This document shows positions 34,528 through 54,923 of a DNA stretch of 64,000 bases, one piece after another. The translations under genes and the position numbers were made by a program. Position 1 is the first letter of the stretch. Each line of letters starts with the position of its first letter. Origin of the DNA: Desulfobacterales bacterium (lineage in GTDB: Bacteria; Desulfobacterota; Desulfobacteria; Desulfobacterales; UBA5852); contig CAXXVS010000002.1 in the NCBI GenBank assembly GCA_963674755.2, forward strand, positions 1,344,001 through 1,408,000, given 5' to 3'. The notes under the pieces are model-generated. The model searched no databases. It saw nothing but the letters and a program-made list of their open reading frames with translations, and was not told the DNA's origin.

Positions 34528-36075
34528 ATGGCGGACAACGAAGGATGGCGTATCGTTCTGATCGACGACGAGGAAGGCATTCGACGCGTAACCCGCATTA
34601 CCCTCGAGGATGCCGGCTACACGGTTCATACGGCCGACAATGGGGAGAGCGGACTTGCCCTTTGCGCTGAGGTTCATCCCCAGATCGTCATCACCGATGT
34701 CCGCATGCCGCGCATGGACGGCCTGACCGTCCTTAAAAAAATCAAACAGACCTATCCCGATACCGAGGTTATCGTGGCCACCGCCTTCGGTGAGATGGAC
34801 CTCGCCATCCGCGCCCTGCAGCTGGACGCATCGGATTTCATCACCAAGCCCCTGCACAGCGACGCCCTTTCCATCGCTCTGGAACGGGCCAAGGCGCGCT
34901 GCAACGACCGCAAGCAGCTCAGGGATTACACCACCTTCCTGGAAGAAGGCTGGAATGATACCACCCGGGAGCTCATTGCGGCCTTTACCTTCCAGAACAG
35001 TCTTATTGAGAGCTCCCTGGACGGCATTATCGGCTGCGATGCCGAAGACGTGGTGGTCACCTTCAACCGGAGCGCCGGGGAGATGCTGGGATATGGCAAG
35101 GCGGAGGTGCTGCGTCAGGAACGCCTGAGCCGGTTTCTGCTGCCGGAGGATGAAGCGCGCCTTAAAGCGGCCCTGCAGGAAAAGGATCGCGGTGACGGAG
35201 GCCGGCTCCCTCTTTTCGAAACCAGCCTGTGCGGTAAAAACGGGCAGCGCATCCCGGTTCAAATGGCGGTAGCGCGTATCGTCATCCCTGAGGAAAGCCC
35301 CGGAACCGTGTGCTTCATCCGGGACCTGCGCGAAATCCGACGCCTGGAACGGGAGGTCGAGGATCAGGCCCGCATCCTGCACCAGGATAAAATGATGTCG
35401 CTAGGCCGCCTGGCGGCCAGCGTGGTCCACGAAATCAACAATCCCCTGGCCGGCATTCTGAACTACTGCCGTCTGATGCTCCGGATTCTCAAGCGGGGGG
35501 AGATTTCCGCCGAACAGCTCGAAAAATTCACCCGCTATCTGGATCTGGTGGAGAAGGAGACCAGCCGCTGCTCCCAGATTGTCTCCGGCCTGCTGACCTT
35601 TTCGCGCAAATCGCCGGCCGCCTTCGGCCCGGTGGCAGTGGACGACCTGATGCAGCGTTGCATCCTGCTCTGCCAGCACAAGCTCGAACTGAACAATATC
35701 CAGTTAGAGCTGGATATCGCCGCCGGTCTGCCTGCCATCAGAGGCGATCTCAACCAATTGCAGCAATGCATCATCAACCTTGTTTTCAACGCGGCCGACG
35801 CCATGCCCCAAGGGGGCTCCTTGACGCTTGCCGCGGCCCGCGGCCAGGCCTCATCGGAGGTTTGCCTGAGGGTGACCGACACCGGCGCCGGCATACCGGA
35901 AAAGGACCTGCCCCATATCTTCGAGCCTTTTTATACCACCAAAGACGAGGGCTACGGGGTCGGACTCGGGCTTTCCACCGTCTACGGCATCATTCAAAAT
36001 CACCAGGGCAGCGTGCAGGTGGACAGCCAGTTGGGCAAGGGCACAACCTTTGTCCTGCGCCTGCCGTCAATCTGA
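34528..36075 (+). CDS. Hybrid histidine kinase REC-PAS-HisKA-HATPase
   Basis: IDDE/TDVRMP/TKP receiver, HEINNPL, NAADA, DTGAG, GLGL. Confidence 0.93.
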   Translation: MADNEGWRIVLIDDEEGIRRVTRITLEDAGYTVHTADNGESGLALCAEVHPQIVITDVRMPRMDGLTVLKKIKQTYPDTEVIVATAFGEMDLAIRALQLDASDFITKPLHSDALSIALERAKARCNDRKQLRDYTTFLEEGWNDTTRELIAAFTFQNSLIESSLDGIIGCDAEDVVVTFNRSAGEMLGYGKAEVLRQERLSRFLLPEDEARLKAALQEKDRGDGGRLPLFETSLCGKNGQRIPVQMAVARIVIPEESPGTVCFIRDLREIRRLEREVEDQARILHQDKMMSLGRLAASVVHEINNPLAGILNYCRLMLRILKRGEISAEQLEKFTRYLDLVEKETSRCSQIVSGLLTFSRKSPAAFGPVAVDDLMQRCILLCQHKLELNNIQLELDIAAGLPAIRGDLNQLQQCIINLVFNAADAMPQGGSLTLAAARGQASSEVCLRVTDTGAGIPEKDLPHIFEPFYTTKDEGYGVGLGLSTVYGIIQNHQGSVQVDSQLGKGTTFVLRLPSI

Positions 36076-36114
36076 ATCCCGGACGGGGAAACACATCTTT
36101 CCTTTCGATCCAAG

Positions 36115-36143
36115 TGTTGCAATGCAACATTATGTTGCGCAAC
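36115..36143. promoter_or_regulatory. Overlapping palindromes, likely enhancer (UAS) for a sigma54 activator
   Basis: TGTTGCA-A-TGCAACA (36115-36129), GCAACAT-T-ATGTTGC (36124-36138), GTTGCGCAAC (36134-36143). Confidence 0.65.
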
Positions 36144-36301
36144 TCCTGCTACACCGCAACGGGTTGTTTTTATCAGGATTGCCTTTGGCATCAATACATT
36201 GCATGCCATCTTGACCATCTGACCTGATTTTCCTTTGCACCACCCCTTATTCATACCTATCCTATTGTTTTTATTATTTTTATATCTTCATAAAGATATC
36301 T

Positions 36302-36316
36302 TGGCACATTTTATGC
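36302..36316 (+). promoter_or_regulatory. Sigma54 (-24/-12) promoter of the hdr operon
   Basis: TGGCAC-ATTTT-ATGC with exact GG-N10-GC spacing, preceded by an AT-rich tract. Confidence 0.7.
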
Positions 36317-36440: not shown

Positions 36441-36995
36441 ATGACGCACAGTTCGCTTTCAGCGCGTCCGATCCTATTCAAGGGAGTTGCCTTGTCTGCC
36501 AGTCGCACCAAAAAGCGGGTCCTGATCGTCGACGATGACAAGAATCAGGCCCTCTTGTTGCGTTCGCTGATGCAGGCCAATGGATACAAACCCTTGCTGG
36601 CCGGAAGCAAACCCGAAGGCGTCAAGATGGCCGAGCGGGAAAAACCCAGCTGCATCATCCTGAACTGCATGATGTGCGGCGAAGAGGGCTTCTGCCTCTA
36701 TCGGCATTTCAAATCCGAGATCGCCTTCCGGGACGTGCCGGTCATCATGCTGTCATCGGTAAGCCGCGATATTCTTTTCCGCTTCCGTTCCCAGGCCGGC
36801 GCTTTTGGAGGCCGTGAGGCCCCCGAGCCGGAGGCGTTTCTCCAAACCCCCCCGGATATCGGCGAGTTGGTGGACACAGTGGCGCGTTTGACCGGATCCA
36901 GGGCATCCCCTTTGATCGAATCGACGTCCGGCGACGAAGCGCTTGAACCATCTTCTTCCAATCCGTCCAGGGATCCGTCAACGTCTTCACCTTGA
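36441..36995 (+). CDS. Single-domain pseudo-receiver protein
   Basis: VLIVDDD intact, phospho-Asp position is Asn (IILNCMM), KP replaced by TP; start uncertain. Confidence 0.75.
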   Translation: MTHSSLSARPILFKGVALSASRTKKRVLIVDDDKNQALLLRSLMQANGYKPLLAGSKPEGVKMAEREKPSCIILNCMMCGEEGFCLYRHFKSEIAFRDVPVIMLSSVSRDILFRFRSQAGAFGGREAPEPEAFLQTPPDIGELVDTVARLTGSRASPLIESTSGDEALEPSSSNPSRDPSTSSP

Positions 36996-37090: not shown

Positions 37091-40000
37091 ATGGCACTAA
37101 AAATCGGTTTTTACATCTGCCATTGTGGGATCAACATCGCCTACAAAGTCCGGGTGGAGGAAGTGGCCGACTTTGTACGTCAGCTGCCCAATGTCGTGGT
37201 GTCCCGGGATTACAAGTTCATGTGTTCGGACCCGGGACAGGAAATGATCGAGAAAGATATCGGCGAATACGGTCTCAACCGGGTAGTGGTGGCCTCCTGC
37301 TCCCCGCGTATGCATGAAAAGACCTTCCAGGGGGCTTGCAAACGGGCCGGGATCAACCCTTACCTCTTCCAAATGGCCTCGGTGCGCGAACAGGTCTCAT
37401 GGGTGACCCTGGACGAGGACGAGGCCACCCTGAAGGCCAAAACACTGGCGGCGGCGGCCATTAACCGGGTACGCTACCACCACGAACTGGAAAGCCGCCG
37501 CGTGTCGGTGCATCCTGACATCATGGTGGTGGGCGGCGGCATCGCCGGCATGCAGGCCGCGCTGGACATCGGCGCTTCAGGGCACCAGACCTATCTCGTC
37601 GAAAAAAGTACCACCATCGGCGGTCACATGCTGCAGTTCGACAAGACCTTCCCCACCCTGGACTGCGCCGCCTGCATCGGGACTCCCAAGATGGTGGAGG
37701 TGGCCCAAAATCCCAACATCCACCTCCTCTCCTACAGCGAGGTCAAGGAAGTCTCCGGCTATATCGGCAACTATACCGTCAAGATCGAACGCAAGCCGCG
37801 CTACATCAAGGAGGGTGTCTGCACCGGCTGCGGGGAGTGCACCAAGGCCTGCCCGGTTACCCTGCCCAGCGAATGGGACGAAGGCCTCGGCGATCGCAAG
37901 GCCATCTACCGCGCCTTCCCCCAGGCCGTGCCGATCACCTTTTGCATCGACAAAAAGGACCGGGCGCCCTGCGTGGGGGCCTGCCCGGCCCACGCCAACG
38001 TCCAGGGCTATGTCCAGCTCATCAAGATGGGCAAGTACAAGGAAGCCCTGCAGCTCATCATGGAGAAAATCCCCCTGCCCGGCGTCCTGGGACGGGTTTG
38101 CCCGCACCCCTGTGAAAGTCAGTGCCGGCGCCAGGACGTAGATGCGCCCATCGCCATCCGCGATCTGAAGCGCTTCGCCGCCGACCAGGTGGACATGGAA
38201 ACCCTGGAGCTGCCTCCCATCGAAGAGAAGGAACAGAAGGTGGCGGTCATCGGATCCGGCCCGGCCGGTCTGACCGCGGCCTTCGATCTGCGCAAGGCCG
38301 GCTACCAGGTGACCCTTTTCGAAGCCCAGGACCAGTTGGGCGGCATGCTGCGGGTGGGCATTCCGGACTACCGGCTGCCGCCGGAAGTGCTGGATGGCGA
38401 AATCGGCTATATCCTGCGGCTGGGCGTCGATACCCGCACCGGCGTGCGTTTTGGCGCTGACATCACCTTGGAATCCCTGCAAGCCGACGGCTACGATGCC
38501 GTATTTCTGGGCATCGGGGCCCAGGAATGCATGAAACTGGGCATCCCCGGCGAAGCCGAGTGTGAGCAGGTGGTGGATGCGGTCTGCTTCCTGCGGGATG
38601 CCAATCTGGAACGCAAACCCAGCCCGGGTCGTAATGTGGTGGTGATCGGCGGCGGCAACGTGGCCATCGACGCGGTGCGGGTGGCCAAACGCCTGGGGGC
38701 CGAGAAGGTCACCCTGGTCTATCGCCGCACCGAGGCCGAGATGCCGGCCGAAGAGGAAGAGATCAAGGGCGCCCGAGAAGAAGGCATTGCTTTTCACTTT
38801 CTCACCTCGCCCCTGGAAGTTATCCAGAAAAACGGCGCGGTCGTTGGCATCCGCTGTATCACCAACGAACTGGGTGCGCCCGACGCCAGCGGACGAAGAC
38901 GCCCGGTACCCGTTGAAGGCAGCGAATTTGTCATCGAATGCGATGCCGTCATCCCGGCCATCGGCCAGCGGGTGGATCTCTCCTGGCAGGATCCCACCTG
39001 CACCCTGGACTGCACGCCCCGCAATCTGATCGTAGCCGATCCGGTCACGCAGCAGACCAGCCAGTCCCACGTCTTTGCGGCCGGGGATGCGGTAAGCGGC
39101 CCGGCCACCGTGGTGGAAGCCGTCGGCGCGACCCACCGGGCGGTGGAAAACATGATCCGCCATTTGGAAGGCCGCCCGGAAGGCAAGGCCGAGGCCCGCT
39201 CGGACAAAGCGTCCGCCAAGGCCCTCCCCGGCGCCAAGCCGTCCGCGGAATGCACCTGGAGCGATATTCCAGTGGACTGTGCCCCGCTGGCCCGCGAGCA
39301 CATCACGCATCTTGACTGGGCCGTGCGGGTAGCCGGTTTCGAGGAGGAATCCATTGGTCTTTCCGAAGACCAGGCCCGCCGCGAAGCAGAACGCTGCCTC
39401 AACTGCGGGGTCTGCTCGGAATGCATGGAATGCGTCAAGGTCTGCGAGGCCAAAGCCATCGATCACACCCAGGAGCCCGAAGAAATCGAAGTCAAAGTGG
39501 GCAGCATCATTCTGGCCACAGGTTACGACCTGCTCGATCCGACCCCCATGAAGCAGTATGGCTACGGCCGCCTGACGAATGTCTTTACGAGCCTGGAGTT
39601 CGAACGTCTGAGCAATGCCACCGGTCCCACAGGGGGCAAGATTCTGATGCGTGAGCCCGACGGCAGCTTCGTCCGTCCGCCCGAAAGCGTGGCCCTCGTA
39701 CACTGTGTGGGCAGCCGGGACGTCAACTACCACGAATACTGTTCCCGGGTCTGCTGCATGTATGCCCTCAAATACTCCCACCTGATCAAGGAAAAGGTCG
39801 GCCATCATACCAAGGTCTACGACTTCTACATCGACATGCGTTGCTTCGGGGAAGGCTACGAGGAGTTTTACCGCCGCTGCCAGGAGGAAGGCACTACCTT
39901 CATCCGCGGCAAGGTGGCCGAGATCAGCGATCAGGCCCAGTCGCCGGAGGAAGAGGGCAAGCTGGTGGCGATTGCCGAAGACACCCTGCTGGGCAAGCGT

Positions 40001-40528
40001 CTGCGCCTCCCGGTGGACATGGTTGTTCTGTGCTCGGCCATCCAGGCCCGCAGCGACGCCGTGGACGTGGGTCGCATCTTCGGGGTCAATATCGGCTCGG
40101 ACGGGTTTTTCCTCGAAGAGCACCCCAAACTGGGCCCCCTCAACACGGCTACGGACGGCGTCTTTCTGGCCGGGGTGTGCCAGTCGCCCAAAGACATCCC
40201 GGACACGGTCTCCCAGGCCTCGGGGGCCGCGGCCAAGGCCCTCTCCCTGGCCACGCGGGGCGAGGTGGCCGTACCGTCGGCCATATCCTGGATCGATCCG
40301 GACATCTGTGCCGGCTGCCAGACCTGTATCGGCCTGTGCCCCTATGGCGCCATCGAATTCGACGAGCGTCGGGGCGTCTCGGTGGTCAATGAAGCGGTCT
40401 GCAAGGGCTGCGGGAGCTGCTCGGGGTTCTGCCCGAGCGGCGCCGCGCAGGTGGCCCATTTCAACAAGCAACAGGTTTTTGCGGAATTCGAGGGCCTGAT
40501 GGATGCCCTAAAGGTGGTCGGGCAATAG
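37091..40528 (+). CDS. hdrA: HdrL-type heterodisulfide reductase subunit A with inserted GltD/NfnB-like module
   Basis: CHCG, GGGIAG, DKTFPTLDCAAC, CVGSRD..CSRVCC, C-terminal 2x[4Fe-4S]; internal GRVCPHPCE, GSGPAG, GGGNVA, YRR. Confidence 0.92.
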   Translation: MALKIGFYICHCGINIAYKVRVEEVADFVRQLPNVVVSRDYKFMCSDPGQEMIEKDIGEYGLNRVVVASCSPRMHEKTFQGACKRAGINPYLFQMASVREQVSWVTLDEDEATLKAKTLAAAAINRVRYHHELESRRVSVHPDIMVVGGGIAGMQAALDIGASGHQTYLVEKSTTIGGHMLQFDKTFPTLDCAACIGTPKMVEVAQNPNIHLLSYSEVKEVSGYIGNYTVKIERKPRYIKEGVCTGCGECTKACPVTLPSEWDEGLGDRKAIYRAFPQAVPITFCIDKKDRAPCVGACPAHANVQGYVQLIKMGKYKEALQLIMEKIPLPGVLGRVCPHPCESQCRRQDVDAPIAIRDLKRFAADQVDMETLELPPIEEKEQKVAVIGSGPAGLTAAFDLRKAGYQVTLFEAQDQLGGMLRVGIPDYRLPPEVLDGEIGYILRLGVDTRTGVRFGADITLESLQADGYDAVFLGIGAQECMKLGIPGEAECEQVVDAVCFLRDANLERKPSPGRNVVVIGGGNVAIDAVRVAKRLGAEKVTLVYRRTEAEMPAEEEEIKGAREEGIAFHFLTSPLEVIQKNGAVVGIRCITNELGAPDASGRRRPVPVEGSEFVIECDAVIPAIGQRVDLSWQDPTCTLDCTPRNLIVADPVTQQTSQSHVFAAGDAVSGPATVVEAVGATHRAVENMIRHLEGRPEGKAEARSDKASAKALPGAKPSAECTWSDIPVDCAPLAREHITHLDWAVRVAGFEEESIGLSEDQARREAERCLNCGVCSECMECVKVCEAKAIDHTQEPEEIEVKVGSIILATGYDLLDPTPMKQYGYGRLTNVFTSLEFERLSNATGPTGGKILMREPDGSFVRPPESVALVHCVGSRDVNYHEYCSRVCCMYALKYSHLIKEKVGHHTKVYDFYIDMRCFGEGYEEFYRRCQEEGTTFIRGKVAEISDQAQSPEEEGKLVAIAEDTLLGKRLRLPVDMVVLCSAIQARSDAVDVGRIFGVNIGSDGFFLEEHPKLGPLNTATDGVFLAGVCQSPKDIPDTVSQASGAAAKALSLATRGEVAVPSAISWIDPDICAGCQTCIGLCPYGAIEFDERRGVSVVNEAVCKGCGSCSGFCPSGAAQVAHFNKQQVFAEFEGLMDALKVVGQ

Positions 40529-40564: not shown

Positions 40565-40987
40565 ATGGAAGATTTCGAACCCGTCGTTGTCGCTTTTGTC
40601 TGCAACTGGTGTACCTACACGGCCGCCGACCTGGCCGGCACGTCGCGCCTGAGCTACCCCAAGAATGTCCGGCTGATCCGGGTCATGTGCACGGGCATGG
40701 TGGACCCCCAGTACGTGATCAAGGCCCTCCTGGAAGGGGCCGACGGCGTCCTGGTGAGCGGCTGCCACCCCGGCGACTGCCATTACATCAACGGCAATTA
40801 CAAGGCCCGCAGGCGCATCAAGCTGCTCAAGGAAATTCTGCCCCAGTTCGGTTTCGAGCCCGAACGCCTGCGGCTGACCTGGATCGGCGCCAGTGACGGC
40901 ATCGAGTTCGCCGAAGTCATGCGGGAGCTCGTCGAGGAACTCAAGGCCCTGGGACCGAGCCAGGCCAAACTGTCAAAGGCGGTTTAA
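40565..40987 (+). CDS. mvhD: MvhD/FlpD [2Fe-2S] subunit
   Basis: CNWCTY, RVMCTG, GCHPGDCHY. Confidence 0.93.
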   Translation: MEDFEPVVVAFVCNWCTYTAADLAGTSRLSYPKNVRLIRVMCTGMVDPQYVIKALLEGADGVLVSGCHPGDCHYINGNYKARRRIKLLKEILPQFGFEPERLRLTWIGASDGIEFAEVMRELVEELKALGPSQAKLSKAV

Positions 40988-41049: not shown

Positions 41050-42189
41050 ATGGCGATCACCGCAACCATTGACGTCAGTCAGCAGGATCTGCTGGCAAGT
41101 TTGAAGACATTTGCTACCACCCTTCTCGAACAGGAGGCCATCCAAGCCATCTTGGTCCCCCAGCGGCTTCCCACGAAAGGCATGGTGATGCCCACCCTGG
41201 TGACCGATCCGGCGCACCTGGACGGGCTGGATCCCCTCTCCCCGGCCTTTCCCATGAACGGGGCCAAGGTGCTGGCCAAGCTGACCCGCCGCCCCTCCGG
41301 GGGCAAGATCGCGGCCCTCCTGCGCCCTTGTGAAATGCGCGCCTTCATTGAGCTCGTCAAGCTCAAGCAGGCCCGCACCGAGGACGTCGTATTGATCGGC
41401 CTGGACTGTCTGGGGGCCTTGCGCAACACCGATTATTTCCGCTTCGCGGGCGACGATGCCGAGGCGGCCACACGCCGCTTCACCGAGGCCATGCTGTCCG
41501 GTCAGAACGGCGCCCTGGACGGTATCGAGCTGACCGCCGCCTGCCAGGCCTGTGAAGCCTCGATCCCCACCGTGGCGGACATCGCCATCGGTTTGTGGGG
41601 CGTCGACACCAACCGGCACCTGCTGGTGGAAGCGCAAACCCCGGCCGGGGAGCAACTCTTGCAGCAGATGGGGCTGCCGGCCGGCGAAGTCCCGGCCAAA
41701 CGCCAGGAAGCGCTTAAAAAGCTGCGTGAAACCCGCACGGCCCACCGGGACGAGATGTTTGCCGCCACGGCGGCGGCCACCGACAGCATCGAGAAACTCA
41801 ACGCCTATCTGGCCAATTGCGTCAACTGCTACAATTGCCGGGTGGCCTGTCCGGTCTGCTACTGCAAGGAATGCGTGTTCGTGACGGATGTCTTCAATCA
41901 CGAACCGGCCCAGTATCTGCGCTGGGCCCAGCGTAAGGGGGCCGTCAAAATGCCCACGGACACGGTTTTTTATCACCTGACACGCCTCACCCACATGAGC
42001 ACCGCCTGCGTGGGCTGCGGCCAGTGCTCCAACGCCTGTCCCAACGATATTCCGGTGATGGAGCTCTTCCGGCTGGTGGCCCATCGCACCCAGGACGCCT
42101 TTGCCTACGAAGCCGGCCGGGATGTGACGGAAAAGCCGCCGCTGTCGGAGTTCAAGGAGGATGAATTCCAGGAAGTGGTGGGACTCTAA
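41050..42189 (+). CDS. FdhB/FrhB-like iron-sulfur protein
   Basis: LRPCE, GLDC, ACQAC, CVNCYNCRVACPVCYCKEC, CVGCGQCSNACP. Confidence 0.82.
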   Translation: MAITATIDVSQQDLLASLKTFATTLLEQEAIQAILVPQRLPTKGMVMPTLVTDPAHLDGLDPLSPAFPMNGAKVLAKLTRRPSGGKIAALLRPCEMRAFIELVKLKQARTEDVVLIGLDCLGALRNTDYFRFAGDDAEAATRRFTEAMLSGQNGALDGIELTAACQACEASIPTVADIAIGLWGVDTNRHLLVEAQTPAGEQLLQQMGLPAGEVPAKRQEALKKLRETRTAHRDEMFAATAAATDSIEKLNAYLANCVNCYNCRVACPVCYCKECVFVTDVFNHEPAQYLRWAQRKGAVKMPTDTVFYHLTRLTHMSTACVGCGQCSNACPNDIPVMELFRLVAHRTQDAFAYEAGRDVTEKPPLSEFKEDEFQEVVGL

Positions 42190-42304: not shown

Positions 42305-45300
42305 ATGCAGACGAAAATCGGCAAGGCACTTGTGATCGGCGCCGGCATCAGCGGTATTCGTGCCGCCCTGGACCTTGCAGAATTCGGCTACGGGGTCACC
42401 CTCGTCGAGCGCGCGCCGCATATCGGCGGCATCTTGAGCCAGTTGGACTACCAATTCCCGACCGACCGCTGCGGCATGTGCAAAATGCTGCCGCTGGTGG
42501 AGCGGGATGCCGGCTCCCAGTTCTGCCTGCGCAAGGGCTTGTTCCACGACAATATCGATATCCGTCTTTCCACGCAGCTGGCCTCGGTGGAAGGCGAACC
42601 CGGCCAGTTCAAAGTCACCCTGCGCCAGGAGAACAATCCGGTGGACCCGGGACTATGCATCGGCTGCGGCAAATGCGTAGACGTCTGCCCGGTGGAAACA
42701 GAAGACCGCTTCAACGCCGGCCTGGCCAAACGCAAGGCCATCTATCTGCCGGTACCCCATGCGATCCCCAATGCCTACCGCATCGATCCCGCGGTCTGCA
42801 ACCAGTGCGGCGCCTGCCAGAAGGCCTGCCCCACCGGAGCGATTCAGCTGAAAGACGAAGGCCGACAGAATTTCAAAATTCTGGTGGTGGATGACGAGCT
42901 GATCGTGCGCGACTCCCTCAAGGAATGGCTCGAAGTGGAGGGAGGGTTTGCGGTGAGCATGGCCGAGAGCGGTGCCCAAGCCTTGGAGCATATCAAGAAT
43001 GAGGGCTGCCAGCTCATGCTGCTCGACATCAAGATGCCTGGTATGGACGGGGTGGAGGTTCTCCAGAAGGCCAAGGACCTCTTTCCGGAACTGCCCGTGG
43101 TGATGATGACGGCTTACGCCACCGTAGAAACCGCGGTGGAGGCCATGAAGATCGGGGCCCTGGACTACCTTATCAAGCCCTTCGACCCGGATGCTCTGAT
43201 TCCCAAGATCATCCAAATCTATCAGGCCCTGAGCACGCCGGCCGGCCCCGAGTTGGAGGTGGGGGCCATCGTGGTCAGCGGTGGCACCAGCTACTATGAC
43301 CCCGCTCAGGGCAAAGACACCCACGGCTATGCCACCCTGCCGGATGTCGTGACGAGCATCGAATTCGAGCGCCTGCTCAGTGGCACCGGGCCCTCGGCCG
43401 GCAAGCTGGTACGGCCCTCGGACGGGCGTCCCGTGCGTTCCATCGCCTGGCTCCAGTGCGTGGGCTCGCGGGATATCCAGAGCGACGCCGATTTTTGTTC
43501 CACCATCTGCTGCATGTACGCCATCAAGGAGGCCATGGTGGCGCGTCGGCGGGCCGCCGAAGCCGGGGCTTCCATCGACACCGCGATCTACTACATGGAC
43601 ATGCGCACCTTCGGCAAGTCCTTCCAGCGCTACCGGGACCGTTCAGAAGCCGAAGGGGTGGCCTTCAAACGCGGGCGCGTGCATACCGTGGTTCCGGACC
43701 AAACGACCGACGATCTTCAAATCCGCTGGGTGCAGACCGACGGCACGGTACAGGTCGACCATGCCGATCTGGTGGTCCTGAGCATCGGCCAGCGGCCGGC
43801 CGAGGGCGCCCAGGCCCTCATGGAAACCCTGGGCATCGGGGAGAATCCCTGGGGCTTTGCCCGCACCGAACCCTTCTCCCTGACCCGCACCGCGCGTCCC
43901 GGTATCGTAGCCTCGGGCTCGTTTGCCGGTTTGAAGGATATCAGCGAATCCGTCATTCAGGCCAGTGCGGCCGCTCTGGCCGCCTCCCAGACCATTCACA
44001 GCGCCGGCGGCAGCATCGGCATCAAAGAATCCGAAGCCCCGGCCTACGAGAACGTCAGCCGGCAGCTTCCGCGCACCCTGGTGGCGGTCTGCACCTGCGA
44101 CGGTGCCGTTGCCGAACGGATCGACCGCCAAGCCCTGGAGGCCCACCTGACCCGTGATCCCGCCGTGGATCAGGTCCATTTCCAGGAACGCCTTTGCACG
44201 GCCGAGGGCTGGACCGATCTCGAAAAAACGATCCGGCGCCAGCGGCCCAACCGGCTCCTGATCGGCGCCTGTCTGCCCTATGGCTTCGTGCGTAAGCTGA
44301 AACAACTGGGCCGCGATGTTGCCCTGGATCCGCGCCTCATGGAGGTGGTGGACATCCGCACGCACACGCTGGCCGCAGAACCGGACGATGCGTCGACAGG
44401 GCCCGACCTCCCGGCAGCCCTCATCAAACGAACCCTGGCCATGGGTGTCACCCGGTTGCAGCATGCCTCGCCGCTGCCGGTGGCCACGGTACCGGTGTTC
44501 CAACGCGCTCTGGTGGTGGGCGGCGGCATTGCCGGCATGACGGCAGCCCTGTCCATCGCCGACCACGGTTTCGGAGTGGACCTGGTGGAACAGGGCGACC
44601 AACTCGGCGGGAACCTGCACTGGCTGCGCCACACGATCGACGGCGAAGAAACCACCCCCTTGCTCGAAACGACTTGCAGCCGGGTGGAAGGCCATCCCCA
44701 AATCGAGGTCCACACGGCCACCCGCATCGTGGCCGCTTTCGGTCAGGCCGGCGCCTTCTATACCACCCTCGAAGACAGCGAGGGCAAGGCCCGCCAGATC
44801 ACCCACGGGGCTGCTATTCTGGCCACCGGGGGCACTGAGGCCACCACGACCAGCTACGGTTACGGCGCCAGCGAGCGGATCATCACCCAGAAAATCCTGG
44901 AAACCCGGCTCCACGACGGCACCCTCGACCCGAAAGATCTCAAAAGCGTGGTCATGATCCAGTGCGTGGACTCGCGGGAGGAACCCCGCAACTACTGCAG
45001 CCGGGTATGCTGCCCGACCACCCTCAAGCATGCCCTGGCCCTCAAAGCGGCCAACCCCGCGTTGCCCATCGTGGTCTTCTACCGCGACATGATGGCCACC
45101 GGTTTCCTGGAAACCTATTTCACCCAGGCCCGCAAGGCCGGGGTGATCTTCATCCCCTACCGTCTGGACAATAAGCCGCAGGTCACGGCGGCCGGCGACG
45201 GGGGAACGATCGAGGTTGCCGGCCAGGAACCGTTTCTCGATCGACCGGTCACCATTGCAGCGGACCTGCTGGTGCTGGCGACCGGCATCGTACCGGCCCT

Positions 45301-45925: not shown

Positions 45926-45939
45926 GAAAAGGAGCTGCC

Positions 45940-46524
45940 ATGACTCTCTCGCCCCCCTCCCGCCGGGAAAGCGGGGCCCATCCCGCCCCGGAGGCCCTGG
46001 AGCCCATCCAGGAGAAGATCAGGGCCTGCATCCAGTGCGGGACCTGCACCGCCTCCTGCCCGAACGAATTTGCCATGGATCTCACGCCTCGCCATCTATG
46101 GCGCATGGTGCTCATGGGGGAAACCGAGGCCATCTTCGCCAGCCAGACCTTCACCCTCTGCTCGGCCTGCTACTCCTGCACGCTACGCTGCCCGCGTGGT
46201 CTGCCGCTGACCGAGGCCATGCACGACCTCAAGCAGATGGCCTATCGCGGCCGCATGGCACGCTACAAACCCAGCACCGCCTTTTACGGCCACTTTATGG
46301 ACACCATTCGCCGCCACGGCCGGATCCGGGAAACCGAATTCATCTCCCGCTACTTCATGACCATGGCACCCAGCAAGCCGTTGCTCCCGCTCGGCTATAG
46401 CGGGCTCGGATGGCGGCTGCTGCGTAAAGGAAAAATGGCCATCGAATACCCTTTTGCGGCCCCGGGCAAGCGTTCCCTGGAAAAGGTCTTTCAAAAAGCT
46501 GAAAGCATGGAGGCATCCGAATGA
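45940..46524 (+). CDS. hdrC: Heterodisulfide reductase subunit C-like
   Basis: CIQCGTCTASCP and CSACYSCTLRCP; AAGGAG RBS. Confidence 0.88.
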   Translation: MTLSPPSRRESGAHPAPEALEPIQEKIRACIQCGTCTASCPNEFAMDLTPRHLWRMVLMGETEAIFASQTFTLCSACYSCTLRCPRGLPLTEAMHDLKQMAYRGRMARYKPSTAFYGHFMDTIRRHGRIRETEFISRYFMTMAPSKPLLPLGYSGLGWRLLRKGKMAIEYPFAAPGKRSLEKVFQKAESMEASE

Positions 46525-47402
46525 GCTACCTCTACTATCCCGGCTGTTCGCTGACCGGAACCGCGCGGGAGTACGACCTGGCCACCCGCGCCGTGATGGA
46601 CGCCATGGGTGTCCCGCTCACCGAATTGGAGGAGTGGACCTGCTGCGGGGCCAGTGCCGCCGAAGCCTGCTCCGAGTTGCTGGCCCTGGCCCTGCCGGCT
46701 ATCAATCTGGCGATCGCCGAGAAAATGGACGGCAAGCAGGACGTCCTGGTGCCCTGCAGTGCCTGCTATCTCAATTTAAAAAAAGCCAACGAGACCCTGC
46801 GGCAGGACGGCAAGACCCGGGAACGGGTCAACAGCGTCCTGGCCGAAAAGGAACTAACCCTGAAGGGGTCGGTGGGGGTGCGGCACCTTCTGGACGTGCT
46901 GGCCACCGACCTGGGGGCGGAGACGGTGCGCCGGAAGGTCAAGGTAGACCTGTCGCATCTGACCATCGCCCCCTATTACGGCTGCCAGTGCCTGCGACCC
47001 TATGCGGTGTTCGACGACCCTGAAGAGCCCCGCAGCATGGAACCGCTGATCCGGGCCACGGGGGCCCGGGTGCATCCCTGGCAGATGGGGGCCAAATGCT
47101 GCGGCGCCTCCCACATGAATACCAAGATGGAAGTGGCCCTGGAACTGGTGCACGCCATCCTGCAGGCCGCCCGTGGCGCCGATGCCATCGTGACGGTCTG
47201 CCCCATGTGCCAGATGAACCTGGAGGCCTATCAGGACAAGATCAACCGGCGCTACGGCGACGTATCCTCGGTGACGATTCTCTATTTGCCCCAGTTGATC
47301 GGCATGGCCTTCGGGATTTCCGACGAAGACCTGGGCCTGGGCCTGAACCTGGCCATCGACGACCGTTTTCTTAGCAAACACAAGACAGCCGTCCCGGCCT
47401 GA
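46521..47402 (+). CDS. hdrB: Heterodisulfide reductase subunit B-like
   Basis: YYPGC, two CCG motifs, CSAC, YYGC, CPMC; ATGA overlap with hdrC. Confidence 0.92.
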   Translation: MSYLYYPGCSLTGTAREYDLATRAVMDAMGVPLTELEEWTCCGASAAEACSELLALALPAINLAIAEKMDGKQDVLVPCSACYLNLKKANETLRQDGKTRERVNSVLAEKELTLKGSVGVRHLLDVLATDLGAETVRRKVKVDLSHLTIAPYYGCQCLRPYAVFDDPEEPRSMEPLIRATGARVHPWQMGAKCCGASHMNTKMEVALELVHAILQAARGADAIVTVCPMCQMNLEAYQDKINRRYGDVSSVTILYLPQLIGMAFGISDEDLGLGLNLAIDDRFLSKHKTAVPA

Positions 47403-47799: not shown

Positions 47800-49098
47800 A
47801 TGGGCGAAGCAGCCATCCAAATCGAACCTGAACGGTCCAGTGCCTTCCTATATCACGTGAAGGAGATGCTGCCGGAGGGTGGCAATCTGGACCTCTGTCT
47901 GACCTGCGGAGCCTGCGCGTCGGGGTGCCCGGCCACCGGCCTGCACGGCATGGACCCGCGCAAATTCCTGCGCATGGCCGCCCTGGGTCTGGACGAGGAG
48001 ATCACCAGCACGCCATGGGTCTGGATGTGCAGCATGTGCCAGCGCTGCATCTATGTCTGCCCCATGAAAATCGACATTCCGGCCCTGGTTTACCAGGCGC
48101 GGGCCGCCTGGCCGCGCGAAGAGCGCCCCAAGGGCATCCTGGGATCCTGCGACATGGCCCTGCGCAACGAAAGCTGCAGTGCCATGGGCGCTTCGCCGGA
48201 AGATTTCCAGTTTGTGGTGGAGGACGTTCTGGAGGAAGTCCGTGAAAGCCAGCCCGGCTTCGAAGACCTGCAGGCTCCCGTCGACAAGCAGGGGGCCCAC
48301 TTCTTCCTGAACCAGAACTCCCGGGAACCGGTCACCGAGCCGGATGAAATGGTCCCGCTCTGGAAGATCCTGCACCATGTCGGGGCGGACTGGACTTATG
48401 GCAGCAAAGGCTGGGGGGGAGAAAACTACTGCATGTTCCTGGCCGACGACGAGAACTGGAAACACGTGGTGGCCACCAGCATCGGGCAGGCCAACGACCT
48501 GGGGTGCAAGGTCTACCTCAACACCGAGTGAGGGCACGTCACGTACGCTGTCCGGGCCGGACAGAAAAAATTCAACATCGCCACCGATCTTGAAATTGCC
48601 AGTATCTACCAATACTACGCCCGCTGGATTCGGGAAGGCAAACTCAACGTCAACAGCGACTGGAATAAAGATCTGAAAATCAAGTTCACGGTGCAGGATC
48701 CCTGCCAGATCGTGCGCAAGAGCTACGGCGATCCCGTGGCCGACGATCTGCGCTACGTCGTCAAGACCCTGGTGGGGGAAGATAATTTCATCGACATGTA
48801 TCCCAACAAATCCAATAACTACTGCTGCGGGGGCGGAGGTGGCTTTTTGCAGTCGGGCTACAACGAAGAACGACGAGAATACGGCCGTCTCAAACTGGAC
48901 CAGATTCTGGCCACCGGGGCTGACTACTGCATCGCGGCCTGTCACAACTGCCATGCCCAGATCCACGATCTGGCCGAACATTTCGAGGCCGCCTATCACA
49001 CCGTGCACCTGTGGACGCTGATTTGCCTGTCTTTGGGGATTTTGGGTGAAAATGAACGGGAGTACCTCGGGCCGGATTTGGCCGAAGTCGGTTTATAG
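47800..49098 (+). CDS. HdrD/DsrK/GlpC-like Fe-S oxidoreductase, selenoprotein (Sec244), 432 aa
   Basis: 2x[4Fe-4S] N-terminus; in-frame TGA at 48529-48531 within N-T-E-U-G-H; frame stays open into DPC..CCGGGG..CHNC; AAGGAG RBS before ATG 47800. Confidence 0.9.
48532..48564 (+). promoter_or_regulatory. Bacterial SECIS-like hairpin
   Basis: CTGTCCG-GGC-CGGACAG (48548-48564): 7-bp stem, G-starting loop 23 nt after the UGA. Confidence 0.75.
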
Positions 49099-49289: not shown

Positions 49290-51644
49290 ATGGTGCACCT
49301 TTTCCGGCAACTGCGCAACACCCTGGTGTTCAAACTCGTCCTGGCGGTGGGTCTGACCCTTCTGGTGAGCATTGCGGTCTGGGCCTATTTCAACATCCGC
49401 TACGAGAACACCAAGCTCACCCAGCACATTCTCAGTGAAACCGCCCGCTTCGGCAACACGATCAAGCTGGGCACCCACTATGCCATGATGACCAACGCCC
49501 GGGACGACATCAACCAGATCATCCTCAACATCGCCCGCCAGGAAGATATCGAAACGATCCGTATCTACAACAAAGCCGGCCAGATCAAATATTCCAATCG
49601 GCCGGAGGAGGTCGACCGGATCACCAATATCAAGGCCGAAGCCTGCGACGTCTGTCACCGCTGGGATCCGCCCCTGGAAACCCTGGCTCCCGAACAGGGG
49701 ACCCGCTTTTTTACCGGCCCGTCCGGCCAGCGGGTCATCGGGGTCATTACGCCCATCCTCAACGAACCGGGATGTTCGGAAGCCTGCCACTTCCATCCCG
49801 TCGGCAAAAAGGTCCTGGGGGCGCTGGACGTGGTCTTGTCCCTGGGAAAGGCCCAGGCCGAAATGCAGCGTTTCAAACGCGGCATTCTTCTGCTGGGGGC
49901 CTTTGTCTTTCTGGTCACCTCGGCCATCATCATGGTGGTGATGCTGCGCTTCGTCAATCGGCCCATCCGCCACCTGATCGACGAAACCCGCCTCATCGCC
50001 GAAGGCGATTACATCACCAAAGTTCCGGTGGACGGCGAGGACGAGATCAACCAGCTGGCCATGGCGGTCAACCGCATGGGGGATGAAATCGCCCGCAGTC
50101 AGGCGGATCTGCGCCGGCAGCGCAACGAGTACCAGAACCTCTTTGAGAACGTCCCCTGCGAAATCGCCGTGCTCGACCGGGAGTTCCGTCTGGTGAACTT
50201 CAACCGCAACTATGCCGCCAAATTCAATCCGGCTCCCGGGGATTATTGTTACAAGGCTTACAAAGGGCGCGAAACGAAATGCGAAAAGTGCCTGGTGGAA
50301 AAGACCTTCCAGGGCGCCGGGCCCCAACTGGGTGAGGAAACGGGTTGCGACAAGGATGGCCGGCCCGCCCACTGGCTGGTGGTCACCTCTCCCCTGGCGG
50401 ATGATACCGGGCAGGTTACCGGCGCCATGGAAATGAACCTGGATCTAACGGACATGAAGGTCCTGGAGGACAAGCTGCGCCGCTCGGAAATGAAATACCG
50501 GGCCTTCTTCAATAACATGCCCAATCCCGTTTTCGTGCTGGACGCGGCGGACCTCACCATCCTGGATTGCAACGCCAGCGTAAAAGCCGTGTATGCGTAT
50601 GAAAAATATGATATACTGGGCACATCGTTTCTCAATTTTTTCGTGGACGAGGAACAACAGGCTTTTGCCAAGGCGATTCCCACCTTGCCCTTCTTGAGCC
50701 GAGTCCGGCAAGTCAACAAATCGGGAACCCCGCTCTTCGTCAACATCCATATCTCCCCCGCTGATGACGAAGGCCGCAAGGTATTCCTCGTAACCACCAG
50801 CGATATCACCAAACGTCTCGAAGTCGAACAACAGCTCATACAGGCCAGCAAAATGGCAACCCTGGGAGAAATGGCGACCGGTGTGGCGCACGAATTGAAT
50901 CAACCCCTGTCGGTCATCAAAACGGCCAGCAGCTTTTTCATGAAGAAGGTTCGCAACCAAGAGCCGATCCAAGACGATATCATGCTGACCTTGACCGAGG
51001 AAATCGACAGTCACATCAACCGCGCCACCAAGATTATCAACCACATGCGCGAATTCGGGCGCAAGTCCGACATGGATATCGTCCCCGTTCAGATCAACGC
51101 GGTCATCAAGCGGGCCTTTGAAATCTTCAGCCAGCAACTTAAAGTGCGTGGCATCGATGTCCATTGGGAATTAGGGCAACATTTGCCGGCCATCGAAGCA
51201 GATCCCAGCTGTCTTGAACAGGTTTTCATCAATCTGCTGGTCAACGCGCGGGATGCCATCGAGTCGGATTGGGACGATGGTGCCGGACAGCTGCTGGAAC
51301 GGCCTTCCGACTATCCGGCCAAAGCGATTTTTATTCGCACCCGATGTCAGGACGACCACGTCATCGCAGAGGTGGAAGACAGCGGTAAGGGCATACCGGA
51401 GGGGATTCGCGACAAGATTTTCGAGCCTTTTTTCACCACCAAGGAAGTCGGCAAAGGGACTGGGCTGGGTCTTTCCATCAGCTATGGGATCGTCAAGGAC
51501 TGCCGTGGCGACATCCGGGTCGATTCCCTTCCCGGTCGGGGGGCACGGTTCATCATAAGCTTTCCCGCATCCTGCCCGGGAAATACCGGCAGCATCCTAC
51601 TGGCACGCAACCGCATGAACAATGAAGCATCAACTCCGGGATAA
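49290..51644 (+). CDS. Membrane sensor histidine kinase (periplasmic haem-c motifs, HAMP, 2 PAS, HisKA, HATPase)
   Basis: Two TMs flanking CDVCH and CSEACH, DEINQLA HAMP, HELNQPL, NARDA, GTGLGL. Confidence 0.92.
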
Positions 51645-53364
51645 CGTCATGTTTCTGCGATACGATCAGATCGGCGAAATATTCGACCTCCTGTCGCTGG
51701 GGGTCATCGTGCTATCGCCCGATCGCAAAATCGTATCACTCAATCGTACTGCCGAAACCCTAACGGGCAAACGGGCACAAGATGTCCTGGGCGAGAACTG
51801 CTTCGACATCTTTCTGGACTACCTATGCGGCGGCATATGCAAATATCAAGAAAAACCGGGGTTGGAAATCGAAACGTCCGTGTCCGAAATCGATTTCATC
51901 GCACCCAACCAGAAGCAATGCAGCCTGACCAAGATTGAATCCCCGCTTTTCGGTGCCGATCACCGCCTGCTGGGATGCATCGAGGTTTTTCAGGACCACT
52001 CCGCCTTCCGCGATCTCATCAAACGCATTCGATTCGAGGACCTTCGCCTTAAAATCATTCTGGACAATCTCGACATCGGGATTTTGACCGTCGACCGGGG
52101 CGACCATATCTCCTTTTTCAATACCATGGCGGAAAAAATTACGGGCTTTGCCCGCACCGATCTTCTGGGGAAATCATGCGCCAGGGTATTCGGCCCGCGC
52201 TTCAGCAAGGAGTTCCAGCCGCCTCCGAACCAACTGGAGGACGGCAACGGCCATTTCCGGGTCGAAACCGACCTGTCCACGCGCGAGGGTCAGCGCATCC
52301 CTGTCAGAACCAACTATGTCCCCTTGAAGAATGAGGAGGGCGAAGTGGTGGGGGGATTGACCACCATTTCCGATCTCTCCCTCCAATACCATTATAAAAG
52401 CGCCATTCGGGGGCAGTACACCTTCTATGACATGGTGGGCCGCCACCCTGAAATGCAGAAGATCTTTGAAATTATTCCGGTCATCGCGTCCAGCGATGCC
52501 ACCGTACTCATCGAAGGGCCCACCGGCACCGGTAAAGATCTGCTGGCCAAAATCATCCACAACGCCAGCGAGCGTGCGAACCGGAAAATGATCAAGGTGA
52601 ACTGCGCTTCTCTGCCCGACAATCTGCTGGAGTCGGAAATGTTCGGGTATGTCAAGGGGGCCTTTACCGGAGCCGAACGTGACAAGCCAGGCCGCTTTCA
52701 AATGGCCGACGGCGGCAGCATTTTCTTGGACGAGATTGGTGATCTGCCGCTGCCCTTGCAGGCTAAACTGCTGCGCGTCATTGAGGACCGTGAATTCTAC
52801 CCTCTCGGCAGCCGCCAAACGACCCAGGTGGATGTGCGCATTATTTCAGCCACCAACCAGAACCTGAAGCAGCTTGTGGAGGCCAAAAAATTCCGCGAAG
52901 ATCTTTACTACCGCCTCAATGTGATGCGCCTTGAGCTACCGTCCCTGAAGGAACGCAAAAGCGACCTGCCGCTGCTGATCGAACACATTCTCAAGCGCAT
53001 CTGCACCCACAAAGGCACCACCATCAACCACATCGACGAGTCGGCCATGGAGGTGCTCCTCAATTATGACTATCCCGGCAACGTCCGCGAACTCGAAAAC
53101 ATTCTTGAGCATGCCCTCATCATCTGTCGCGGCGATATGATCGAGAGAAAGCACTTTCCGCTCTGGCTTCTCAAGGATGCCCCCCAGGAACCCTCGGACG
53201 ACGGCAGCATCGGATACGTTGGGCGGGTATGGGATGAAAAGGAACGGATCATCGATGCGCTCCGTCGCTGTCGATGGAACAAAAGCCAAACAGCACGCGC
53301 TCTGAATATGGACCGCACCACCCTGTGGCGCAAGATGAAAAAATACCGGATCGGCGAAAACTGA
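51622..53364 (+). CDS. Sigma54-dependent activator PAS-PAS-AAA+-Fis HTH, no receiver domain
   Basis: GPTGTGKD, GAFTGA, FLDEIG, FREDLYYRLNV, YPGNVRELEN, DRTTLWRK; start may be 51649. Confidence 0.94.
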   Translation: MKHQLRDNVMFLRYDQIGEIFDLLSLGVIVLSPDRKIVSLNRTAETLTGKRAQDVLGENCFDIFLDYLCGGICKYQEKPGLEIETSVSEIDFIAPNQKQCSLTKIESPLFGADHRLLGCIEVFQDHSAFRDLIKRIRFEDLRLKIILDNLDIGILTVDRGDHISFFNTMAEKITGFARTDLLGKSCARVFGPRFSKEFQPPPNQLEDGNGHFRVETDLSTREGQRIPVRTNYVPLKNEEGEVVGGLTTISDLSLQYHYKSAIRGQYTFYDMVGRHPEMQKIFEIIPVIASSDATVLIEGPTGTGKDLLAKIIHNASERANRKMIKVNCASLPDNLLESEMFGYVKGAFTGAERDKPGRFQMADGGSIFLDEIGDLPLPLQAKLLRVIEDREFYPLGSRQTTQVDVRIISATNQNLKQLVEAKKFREDLYYRLNVMRLELPSLKERKSDLPLLIEHILKRICTHKGTTINHIDESAMEVLLNYDYPGNVRELENILEHALIICRGDMIERKHFPLWLLKDAPQEPSDDGSIGYVGRVWDEKERIIDALRRCRWNKSQTARALNMDRTTLWRKMKKYRIGEN

Positions 53365-53408
53365 AACCGCCTGCCCCGTCTGTGGGCCCACCGGTGGGAA
53401 CGCTAACC

Positions 53409-54923
53409 ATGGCAAAGGAAAAAATACTCATCGTCGACGATGAAGAGGGTATCCGCAAAGTTCTGGGGATCTCCCTGACCGACCGGGGCTATACTGTCCT
53501 GAGGTCCGAGAACGCTGTGGAGGCCTTGCAGGTCTTTAACGCCGAGCAGCCGGATATCGTCCTGACCGACATCAAAATGCCCGGGATGGACGGCATCGAA
53601 CTCCTACGTCGTCTCAAGCGGACCAATCCCGATACGGAAGTCGTGGTCATCACCGGCCACGGCGACATGGACCTGGCCATCAGGAGTCTCAAATACGAAG
53701 CCACAGACTTTATTACCAAACCCATCGACGATGCCCATTTGGATCGGGCCCTGCAAAAATCCAGAGAACGCATCGCCCTGCGCAATCAGTTGCGGCAATA
53801 CACCGAAAACCTGGAAAGCCTTCTTCAGCAGAAATCCGAACGTCTTGCCCTACAAACGGAGAACGGTACCCAACCGAACCTGTTTGACCGTCTGCCGGGA
53901 TATGTTACCGTCCACAATGCACACTATCAGATTACCTCCGCCAACCACCGCTTTAAAGAAGACTTCGCCTTTGATCCCCCATCCGGCGCGTTTTGTTATG
54001 AAGTGGTCCGGGGACGCACCGCCCCCTGCGAAGACTGCCCGGTGGCGCTCACTTTCGCGAATGGCAAATCCCACCAATGCGAACTGACCTACAAAACCCC
54101 TTCCGGCCAGGATTGCCATCTCTTCGCCTGGACGACGCCCCTGCGGGAAACCAGCGACAAAATCGGCGCCGTGATAATGATGGCCACCGATATCTCCCCT
54201 ATTCTGGACATGCGCGACCATCTGTCCTCCCTGGGGCTGATGATCGGCTCGGTCTCCCACAGCATCAAGGGCTTGCTGACCGGCTTGGACGGCGGGGTTT
54301 ACATGCTGGACAGGGGGTTTGCCAAGGACGACGCCGATCAGATCGGAGAGGGGCTCGATATTGTCAAAATAATGGTGGGGCGCATCAAGAACATGGTCCT
54401 GGACGTCCTGTATTACGCCAAGGAACGGGACCTGGCGCTTGCTTCCTGCCGGATTTTGGACCTGGCCGAAGAAACGGCCGCTGTGGTGCGGCCACGCATC
54501 GCGTCATCGGGCATCGATCTGATCTGTGATTTCGCCGATGACCTGAACGATTTGGAATTTCAAGTCGATCCGGATCAGCTGCGGGCCGCTCTGGTCAACA
54601 TCCTCGAAAACGCGCTGGATGCCTGCCGGGAGAAGAGCGATCCGACCGGTCCGCAGATTGCCTTCCGGGTCTATCCTGAGGACCGCTACGTGGTTTTCGC
54701 CATCGCCGACAACGGGGTCGGCATAAGCGAGGAAGTTCAATCCCGCATCTTTAACCTGTTCTTTTCCTCCAAGGCCACCCAGGGGACCGGCATCGGGCTT
54801 TTCATTACCCGCAAGATCATCCGTCAGCACGGCGGCGAGATTATCGTAACCTCCCAGCCCGGTGAAGGCACCCTCTTCCTGGTCCGTATCCCCCTGGACG
54901 CTCCGCCGCCGCAAAATCCATAG
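53409..54923 (+). CDS. Hybrid histidine kinase REC-PAS-HisKA-HATPase
   Basis: VDDE/TDIKMP/TKP receiver, H-box SHSIKG, NALDA, DNGVG, GTGIGL. Confidence 0.9.
   Translation: MAKEKILIVDDEEGIRKVLGISLTDRGYTVLRSENAVEALQVFNAEQPDIVLTDIKMPGMDGIELLRRLKRTNPDTEVVVITGHGDMDLAIRSLKYEATDFITKPIDDAHLDRALQKSRERIALRNQLRQYTENLESLLQQKSERLALQTENGTQPNLFDRLPGYVTVHNAHYQITSANHRFKEDFAFDPPSGAFCYEVVRGRTAPCEDCPVALTFANGKSHQCELTYKTPSGQDCHLFAWTTPLRETSDKIGAVIMMATDISPILDMRDHLSSLGLMIGSVSHSIKGLLTGLDGGVYMLDRGFAKDDADQIGEGLDIVKIMVGRIKNMVLDVLYYAKERDLALASCRILDLAEETAAVVRPRIASSGIDLICDFADDLNDLEFQVDPDQLRAALVNILENALDACREKSDPTGPQIAFRVYPEDRYVVFAIADNGVGISEEVQSRIFNLFFSSKATQGTGIGLFITRKIIRQHGGEIIVTSQPGEGTLFLVRIPLDAPPPQNP

Follow-up and report, generated by a model that had tools for sequence, protein, structure and literature searches.

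A conserved receiver domain inserted in HdrA of a Desulfobacterales hdr locus, and its likely partner histidine kinase

What might a receiver domain do inside an enzyme of energy metabolism, and which kinase would serve it? This question is raised by an hdr locus of a Desulfobacterales bacterium, which occupies positions 34528..54923 of a 64,000-nt stretch of contig CAXXVS010000002.1 (the window; all parts of the locus lie on the + strand). Hdr electron-bifurcating complexes are central to energy conservation in anaerobes, and the HdrA protein of this locus (42305..45751, 1148 residues) carries an inserted receiver (residues ~190-305, 42872..43219) with its phospho-site, D241, at 43025-43027. 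The hdr genes are bracketed by three histidine kinases: HK1 (34528..36075; REC-PAS-HisKA-HATPase, assigned by Pfam, kinase tree and co-occurrence), the membrane kinase HK2 (49290..51644; an extracytoplasmic domain with CxxCH and Cx3CH motifs, followed by HAMP, PAS, PAS, HisKA and HATPase), and HK3 (53409..54923; a REC-PAS-kinase with an atypical His box that has no acidic residue after the His). A preliminary description of the locus had listed two REC-PAS hybrid kinases, one membrane kinase, a receiver-less PAS/sigma-54 factor, a degenerate stand-alone receiver and an intact HdrA receiver, all of which were confirmed by Pfam and by the residues themselves, and had joined them into a relay that runs from the membrane kinase through the hybrid-kinase receivers to HdrA. 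Our comparisons favour, with slightly better than even confidence, a modified wiring in which HK2 would act on HK1 and HK1 on the HdrA receiver, accompanied by an HK3 branch and a PAS/sigma-54 layer. Naming HK1 as the probable partner and HK2 as its probable input turns a domain oddity into a testable three-protein phosphotransfer question.

The receiver of HdrA was recognized by Pfam (PF00072, E 1.5e-30) and possesses the full catalytic set, D196, D197, D241, T269 and K291. Its insertion point corresponds to the position between residues 309 and 311 of chain A in the HdrA structure 8RVV, directly behind the inserted ferredoxin domain and before the return to the first FAD domain. An AlphaFold2 model of HdrA (98 sequences; mean pLDDT 83.8, pTM 0.82) folded residues 191-310 as a beta/alpha x5 receiver, and a fold search with the model returned HdrA 8RVY as the best match. 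A homologue search with HdrA residues 100-400 yielded 1176 proteins among 8000 scored candidates, some lower-ranked ones of which may be receiver-less, and the query would miss strongly decayed receivers; among the 120 listed homologues examined, the five catalytic residues were invariant (120/120), and the mean identity was highest in the receiver (76%), followed by the ferredoxin part (71%) and the stretch of HdrA behind the receiver (64%). The named relatives are mostly Desulfobacterales and related Deltaproteobacteria, in keeping with the placement of the host. In the receiver-HdrA copies of the loci fetched below, D241, T269, Y288 and K291 were present in 115/115, while the helix-1 residues R202 and S204 were kept in 114 (one copy is truncated) and W208 in 104. 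Judged by this conservation, the HdrA receiver is real and maintained under strong selection. The surrounding protein appears to be type II-like, with two thioredoxin-reductase domains that both keep the equivalents of E356/K409 (E355/K408 in the first half, the matching Glu and K908 in the second), and flavin-based electron bifurcation is its putative activity.

We used the ferredoxin-receiver-HdrA junction as a query against an order-level sample of 301 genomes. As a result, 142 were matched, and after two of them (G132 and G233) had been dropped because the match came via a USP-receiver protein only, receiver-HdrA proved widespread in this order of likely sulfate reducers (140/301 genomes). 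HK1 was matched in 147 of the same genomes, and its presence followed that of receiver-HdrA (both 129, HdrA only 11, HK1 only 18, neither 143; phi 0.81). Outside the order, receiver-HdrA occurred in 3/290 genomes of a phylum sample, and HK1 in the same three. For 83 same-contig pairs picked from both tables, the distance between HK1 and HdrA was below 26 kb in 81 and below 12 kb in 57. We also carried out the synteny survey that the preliminary description had called for, by fetching 20-kb stretches around 100 receiver-HdrA matches, selected where the contig left enough room. Of these loci, 89 contained one or more of the three kinases, with HK2 in 74, HK3 in 73 and the two together in 64; HK1 was seen in 23, the stretch often ending before it is reached. 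The other genes recovered were the stand-alone receiver (66), the activator (34) and hdrL (94). When its sensor domain was used as the presence test, HK2 matched 170/301 genomes (with receiver-HdrA 122, HK2 only 48, HdrA only 18, neither 113), giving a phi of 0.58 that understates how often HK2 accompanies HdrA, since HK2 cores joined to a different N-terminus escape this query (as in 12 loci and in at least 4 of 5 genomes). The 48 HK2-only genomes were explained partly by a paralogous cassette and partly by split assemblies.

Some of the exceptions to the HK1 pattern were accounted for on closer inspection. Ten of the 11 HdrA-only genomes were searched again with looser settings: a short HK1 was found in G079 (60%) and G034 (56%), and G168 and G289 encode, immediately behind hdrB, a GAF kinase whose His box is of HK1 type, with a similar-sized frame in G268. 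A broken-frame HK1 lies within the hdr locus of G166. A renewed search was also made in 15 of the 18 HK1-only genomes; receiver-HdrA is cut by a contig end in G143, hdrA sits at a contig edge in G083 and G010, and a USP-REC-USP gene adjoins HK1 in G132 and G233. No receiver-HdrA was found in G191; 2.3 kb away from its HK1 is an ordinary receiver-sigma-54 regulator, and the receiver of this regulator shares 58% identity with that of HdrA. The USP-receiver-USP protein was also noted in the fetched loci L014 (10502-11821), L138, L146, L154, L210, L254 and L255, with a receiver 65-69% identical to the HdrA receiver, and in all seven its gene adjoins an HK1-type kinase gene. These neighbourhoods, like that of G191, count in favour of HK1 as partner of this receiver type.

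The kinship of HK1 and the HdrA receiver was then assessed against ordinary kinase-regulator pairs. A collection scan for related loci, which covered 4/64 parts, had provided 15 receiver-HdrA loci (L001-L015), most of its other matches being ordinary regulators that were later used as the partner test set; loci L016-L080, selected by HdrA-receiver likeness alone, are mostly ordinary pairs of a kinase and a receiver-sigma-54 regulator. All fetched loci together supplied 76 kinase-regulator pairs, 52 of them with the helix-1 signature R-x-S-L-x-x-W, which in the host genome is carried by the HdrA receiver alone among 175. The adjacent kinase was closest to HK1, of the three kinases, in 52/52 signature pairs; this "best of three" count was rejected as a partner test, being non-discriminating (52/52 versus 21/24 in pairs without the strict signature), and was replaced by trees and score distributions. 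The scoring of kinase-receiver specificity that the preliminary description had proposed separated HK1 and did not separate the other two: when 59 partner kinases were compared with 25 orthodox kinases of the genome, the median His-box similarity to HK1 was 64 versus 38, that to HK2 32 versus 32 and that to HK3 11 versus 12. A tree of 152 kinase cores was built that included 26 randomly drawn partners and the 84 of 109 own-genome cores whose His box is readable. In it, 17 HK1 sequences nested with all 26 partner kinases (support 0.982) and with zero other own-genome kinases. A tree of 279 receivers matched this pattern, in that the HdrA and USP receivers formed a clade (0.975) inside a larger clade with all 26 sampled signature sigma-54 regulators (0.863), which contained none other of the 172 own-genome receivers. 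Family trees, gene neighbourhoods and co-occurrence thus point to HK1 as the likely partner of the HdrA receiver. The earlier claim that the kinases act on this receiver holds in so far as HK1 is, by descent, of the kind that partners HdrA-type receivers, whereas nothing links HK3 to HdrA.

Several observations weigh against a fixed assignment. The sampled genomes are related, so that phi and the co-occurrence counts overstate independence, and the ordinary pairs that define the match belong to one family and are likewise not independent. HK2 is present in those 48 genomes without a receiver-HdrA match. Among the HdrA-only genomes, the HK1-like gene of G034 sits 411 kb from receiver-HdrA, G140, G196 and G291 gave HK1-core matches of 45-47% only, and the looser search matched no HK1-like core in G152 and G276 (assemblies of 410 and 330 contigs). 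The correlation of His box and helix 1 is weak within the 25 own-genome pairs alone (rho 0.15). One own-genome kinase scores 64, equal to the partners' median, and the HK1 core is best of three in the 21/24 pairs without strict signature as well, so cross-talk of HK1 is possible; the partner of HK1 in relatives may instead be an ordinary regulator or the USP protein. The absence of an ordinary regulator, correctly reported for this locus, does not extend to all relatives, as an ordinary kinase and receiver-sigma-54 pair with a related receiver is found in 9/100 hdr loci. As the host genome encodes 109 kinase cores and 175 receiver domains, the latter in 170 frames, such a local absence is weak evidence by itself and needs outside support.

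How, then, could the membrane kinase take part? Receivers do not pass phosphoryl groups to other receivers, and the N-terminal receivers of the two hybrid kinases are therefore better read as input switches; the relay from the membrane kinase through hybrid receivers to the HdrA receiver is not supported in its original wording. A classical His-Asp-His-Asp phosphorelay is not seen either, because HPt families gave zero matches among 16 window proteins scanned and both hybrid receivers lie N-terminal, not C-terminal, to the core. HK1 combines an intact N-terminal receiver (Asp-Asp, phospho-Asp, Thr and Lys; phospho-Asp in 22/22 orthologue receivers) with a canonical His box and an ATP-binding domain, the make-up of a Rec-controlled histidine kinase of the LvrB type, whose autokinase would, by analogy, be set by receiver phosphorylation; HK2 would likely switch HK1 on or off through this receiver. 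In the LvrA-LvrB-LvrC system, according to excerpts of PMC13269768, an upstream kinase activates a second kinase via its N-terminal receiver, and the second kinase phosphorylates a downstream receiver protein. Unlike in LvrB as described there, the receiver and core of HK1 are separated by a PAS domain, and the cascade is predicted to end on a flavin/Fe-S enzyme, where LvrA-LvrB-LvrC ends on an anti-sigma factor.

HK2 itself has two hydrophobic segments and, according to Pfam, no receiver. Its outer domain contains two Cys/His motifs in 117/119 copies and matches PF21563 weakly, below the cut-off, suggesting a putative dihaem (c-type haem) extracytoplasmic sensor. In helix 1, the receivers of HK1 and HK3 are each other's best match genome-wide, and they share a clade with those of receiver-kinases that flank HK2 elsewhere (0.942); a receiver-kinase gene of the HK1/HK3 type lies within 2.2 kb of an HK2-core gene in 112/120 cases. 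In addition, an HK2-type sensor and an HK1-type core are fused into a single chain in 24 kinases, most of them belonging to other phyla and typically encoded next to a signature regulator, which suggests that the present two-step path from HK2 to HK1 replaced one kinase. Such single-chain kinases beside a receiver-sigma-54 regulator were noted in Acidobacteriota, Gemmatimonadota and others (L017, L019, L020, L024-L026, L030, L034 and further loci). The link from HK2 to HK1 is weaker than that from HK1 to HdrA, and the alternative that survives best, although we hold it to be unlikely, is that HK1 acts on HdrA under the control of its own PAS domain or of another upstream kinase, with HK2 feeding HK3 only. 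HK2 adjoins HK3, not HK1, in most loci, and HK1-type cores exist without a receiver, preceded by multi-PAS (L014, L176, L252-L255) or GAF (L114, L164) inputs; the mutual best helix-1 match and shared clade of the HK1 and HK3 receivers, as well as the single-chain relatives, speak for HK2 acting through HK1. A test for HK2 loss in five genomes with receiver-less HK1 was mixed: three lacked an HK2-level core, one had a match of 58% and one of 50%. The GAF kinase of L114 (13078-14379) and L164 (5437-6714), which has an HK1-type His box, is encoded immediately behind hdrB, on the other strand. One PAS domain each of HK2 (119/119 copies) and HK3 was also seen to carry a C-(Y)-x7-10-C-x-x-C motif, which may be a site for a metal or an Fe-S cluster.

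The domain composition and its conservation, the co-occurrence and the agreement of the family trees are direct observations, and from them three steps of falling strength can be proposed. HK1 (34528) is probably the phosphodonor of D241 in HdrA; HK2, with a little more in favour than against, would act on the receivers of HK1 and HK3; and there is an even chance that phosphorylation changes the electron exit at the ferredoxin domain or the assembly of the HdrL-MvhD-FdhB-HdrABC complex. The relay would then end on the HdrA enzyme rather than on a transcription factor. In its most specific form, which we offer tentatively, a dedicated cascade from the dihaem sensor HK2 to HK1 would phosphorylate HdrA at the ferredoxin-domain hinge and gate electron bifurcation directly. 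It would have arisen when the receiver of an ordinary sigma-54 regulator was captured along with the cognate kinase, and would be present in roughly half of the genomes sampled from the order. Such a case would illustrate the rewiring of a transcriptional two-component pair onto an enzyme. The AlphaFold2 model and the fold search confirm the domains and are silent on contacts between receiver and ferredoxin domain. The receiver might instead be a feedback element, the redox or assembly state of the enzyme setting how much phosphoryl is drained from HK1 while the real output lies elsewhere. Its tie to the ferredoxin domain, which could couple redox state to the receiver, and its reuse as a portable module in the USP protein fit this idea, which is nevertheless improbable given that none of the 175 receivers of the genome is another of HdrA type competing for HK1, and that 115/115 copies keep the switch residues Thr269 and Tyr288, as expected of an output switch.

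HK3 gives a different picture from HK1. Pfam found its HATPase and no HisKA, and the residue after the phospho-His in 98 orthologues is Gly (76), Ser (10), Ala (9), Asn (2) or Asp (1), so that the acidic residue of a canonical HisKA occurs in 1/98. The stand-alone DVU0259-like pseudo-receiver (36441..36995, assigned by Pfam and NF045717 score) has Asn for Asp and Thr for Lys, and reached 55.9 bits with NF045717 versus a cut-off of 160, short of DVU0259-family membership. The missing phospho-Asp, rightly described for this copy, is a lineage-specific loss, since the stand-alone receiver upstream of hdr keeps the Asp in 36/64 loci (Asp and Lys in 30/64). We read 40 HK2-centred loci of 150 listed matches, namely 20 from junction-less genomes and 20 second or unlinked copies. 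A cassette of TmcB-like protein, USP, stand-alone receiver, long HK3, HK2 and receiver-kinase was present in 12/40, and HK2 with the activator and USP in 5 more. The stand-alone receiver of the HK2 cassettes at Tmc/Hmc-like genes retains Asp and Lys in 23/23, and excerpts of PMC5109826 describe similar kinases, regulators and USP flanking Hmc genes. An intact DVU0259-like receiver is likewise encoded elsewhere in the host genome, at G000 C1:1242180 beside a TmcB-like gene. HK3 likely serves a DVU0259-like stand-alone receiver branch that has decayed at this locus, a side branch common to other redox operons.

The idea of a self-contained system therefore survives in part: the kinases do travel with receiver-HdrA, and HK2, HK3-type kinase, stand-alone receiver, USP and activator also stand beside Tmc/Hmc-like genes. 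A closed version, the preliminary description taken literally, would have the membrane kinase signal through both hybrid kinases to HdrA as their common target; it is unlikely, slightly more so than the feedback reading. It draws on the 64/100 receiver-HdrA loci with both HK2 and HK3, usually straight after hdrA or hdrCB, and on the dead stand-alone receiver of this genome; against it stand an HK3 His box unlike those of HdrA-type receiver partners (11 versus 12) with an acidic residue in 1/98, the HK2/HK3-type genes with intact stand-alone receiver (23/23) beside Tmc/Hmc-like genes in 12/40 loci, and the intact DVU0259-like receiver elsewhere in the genome. A receiver-less HdrA paralogue in the genome has a receiver, a kinase and a receiver-kinase downstream of it as well, which weighs against the preferred wiring. 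The least probable reading, by a narrow step, takes the kinases as a general redox-operon cassette for regulators elsewhere and the HdrA receiver as fed by unlinked kinases or by small donors, for instance acetyl phosphate, or as a structural remnant of a captured sigma-54 regulator, for which the 175 receivers and 109 kinase cores and the kinase clusters at other redox loci, including receiver-less HdrA, may be cited, against invariant catalytic and helix-1 residues, matching kinase and receiver trees, and tight co-occurrence of HK1 with receiver-HdrA inside and outside the order.

The separate PAS/sigma-54 transcriptional layer of the preliminary description was supported. The sigma-54 activator (51622..53364; PAS-PAS-AAA-HTH) lacks a receiver according to Pfam, and its first PAS domain bears the OrpR-type C-x8-C-x3-C motif as C60-x8-C69-x3-C73, with Asp62; the spacing is kept in 38/38 homologues and GAFTGA in 37/38. 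A strict sigma-54 pattern (TTGC) gave 0 matches in the window; a -24/-12 motif of sigma-54 type (GG-N10-GC) upstream of the hdr operon, at 36302..36316, was identified by reading the sequence, and such a looser motif precedes the stand-alone receiver in 35/52 loci versus 0.2 expected from shuffles. The activator likely senses redox via an iron-sulfur cluster and drives the operon from this promoter, as predicted from these motifs, so that the transcription layer could sense redox without a kinase. In excerpts of PMC8359166, OrpR of Desulfovibrio vulgaris is an Fe-S redox sensor and a PAS sigma-54 activator with the same cysteine spacing (C52, C61, C65) and an acidic position 54; the present activator differs in having two PAS domains and the hdr operon as predicted target. 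Palindromic and repeated GTTGC/GCAAC motifs at 36113-36165, upstream of the promoter, form a candidate activator-binding region.

The remaining genes of the operon were assigned as HdrL, an HdrA with an inserted GltD-like NAD(P)H module (37091..40528; family profile matches), MvhD/FlpD (40565..40987; Pfam), an FdhB/FrhB-like iron-sulfur protein (41050..42189; Pfam), HdrC (45940..46524) and HdrB (46521..47402), the last two by family profile matches. They are followed by an HdrD-like gene (47800..49098), which is a single reading frame across an in-frame TGA at 48529-48531; the TGA is in a Cys-like position and the same split occurs in relatives; selenocysteine is likely encoded there.

Response regulators with enzyme outputs are known, such as CheB and PleD, in which the receiver is terminal and the outputs are signalling enzymes; the protein described here resembles them in the fusion of a receiver to an enzyme and differs in that the receiver is internal to a core energy-metabolism enzyme. 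Our literature search on enzyme-output regulators returned nothing relevant. The cluster type itself was published as hdr locus VIII of Desulfobacterium autotrophicum HRM2 (Strittmatter et al. 2009, PMC2702500), and excerpts of that paper show the same tandem hdrL/hdrA, mvhD, fdhB and hdrACB-like operon. In these excerpts, the numbered genes of the hdr loci include, by the legend of Fig. 4, a histidine kinase along with a response regulator and a CheY-like regulator, and the key of supplementary Fig. S3a names a response-regulator receiver domain among the Hdr protein domains, so that the receiver-Hdr fusion was probably drawn in 2009; unlike the assignment made here, its available passages do not discuss the receiver, assign a kinase or propose regulation of the enzyme. 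The locus also resembles HdrABC/HdrL of Syntrophobacter fumaroxidans, which in excerpts of PMC5947623 comprises HdrL, MvhD, an Fe-S beta-subunit-like protein and HdrABC, was detected with sulfate and is proposed to perform confurcation linked to DsrC; the terms "response regulator" and "kinase" are absent from the main text of that paper. With type II HdrA of methane-metabolising archaea (Lyu et al. 2025, PMC12054007, in excerpts) and with 8RVY, 5ODC and 7BKD, our HdrA shares two thioredoxin-reductase domains, an inserted ferredoxin domain, the E356/K409 equivalents in both halves and the clustering with mvhD and fdhB. The inserted receiver sets it apart, "receiver" and "response regulator" being absent from that main text. 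A search of the literature outside subscription papers and most supplements found no paper on two-component or kinase control of HdrA or Hdr complexes; the terms sought are absent from PMC3333781, and the parts of PMC4046663 and PMC6491731 consulted held nothing on such control. The gene cluster type, and probably the receiver fusion, were thus known, and what is added here is the wiring, with HK1 as likely partner and HK2 as probable input.

A few neighbouring features were also noted. Divergent from HK1, at 33424-34230 on the - strand, lies a gene for a metallo-beta-lactamase-fold protein, with weak AHL-lactonase-like matches under the cut-off, which was unseen in the related loci L001-L016. 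Further upstream (27073-28002, - strand), the window encodes a PAS protein with a His-box-like segment, apparently without an ATP-binding domain. A second Hdr-type locus of the host genome (G000 C2:1422525-1436426) lies about 15 kb past the window and contains, in order, a sigma-54 activator, a split HdrD-like gene, a receiver-less HdrA of 1010 residues, MvhD, a receiver, a kinase and a receiver-kinase. A close paralogue of the HdrD-like gene, with the same TGA split, is found at G000 C2:1424394-1425713.

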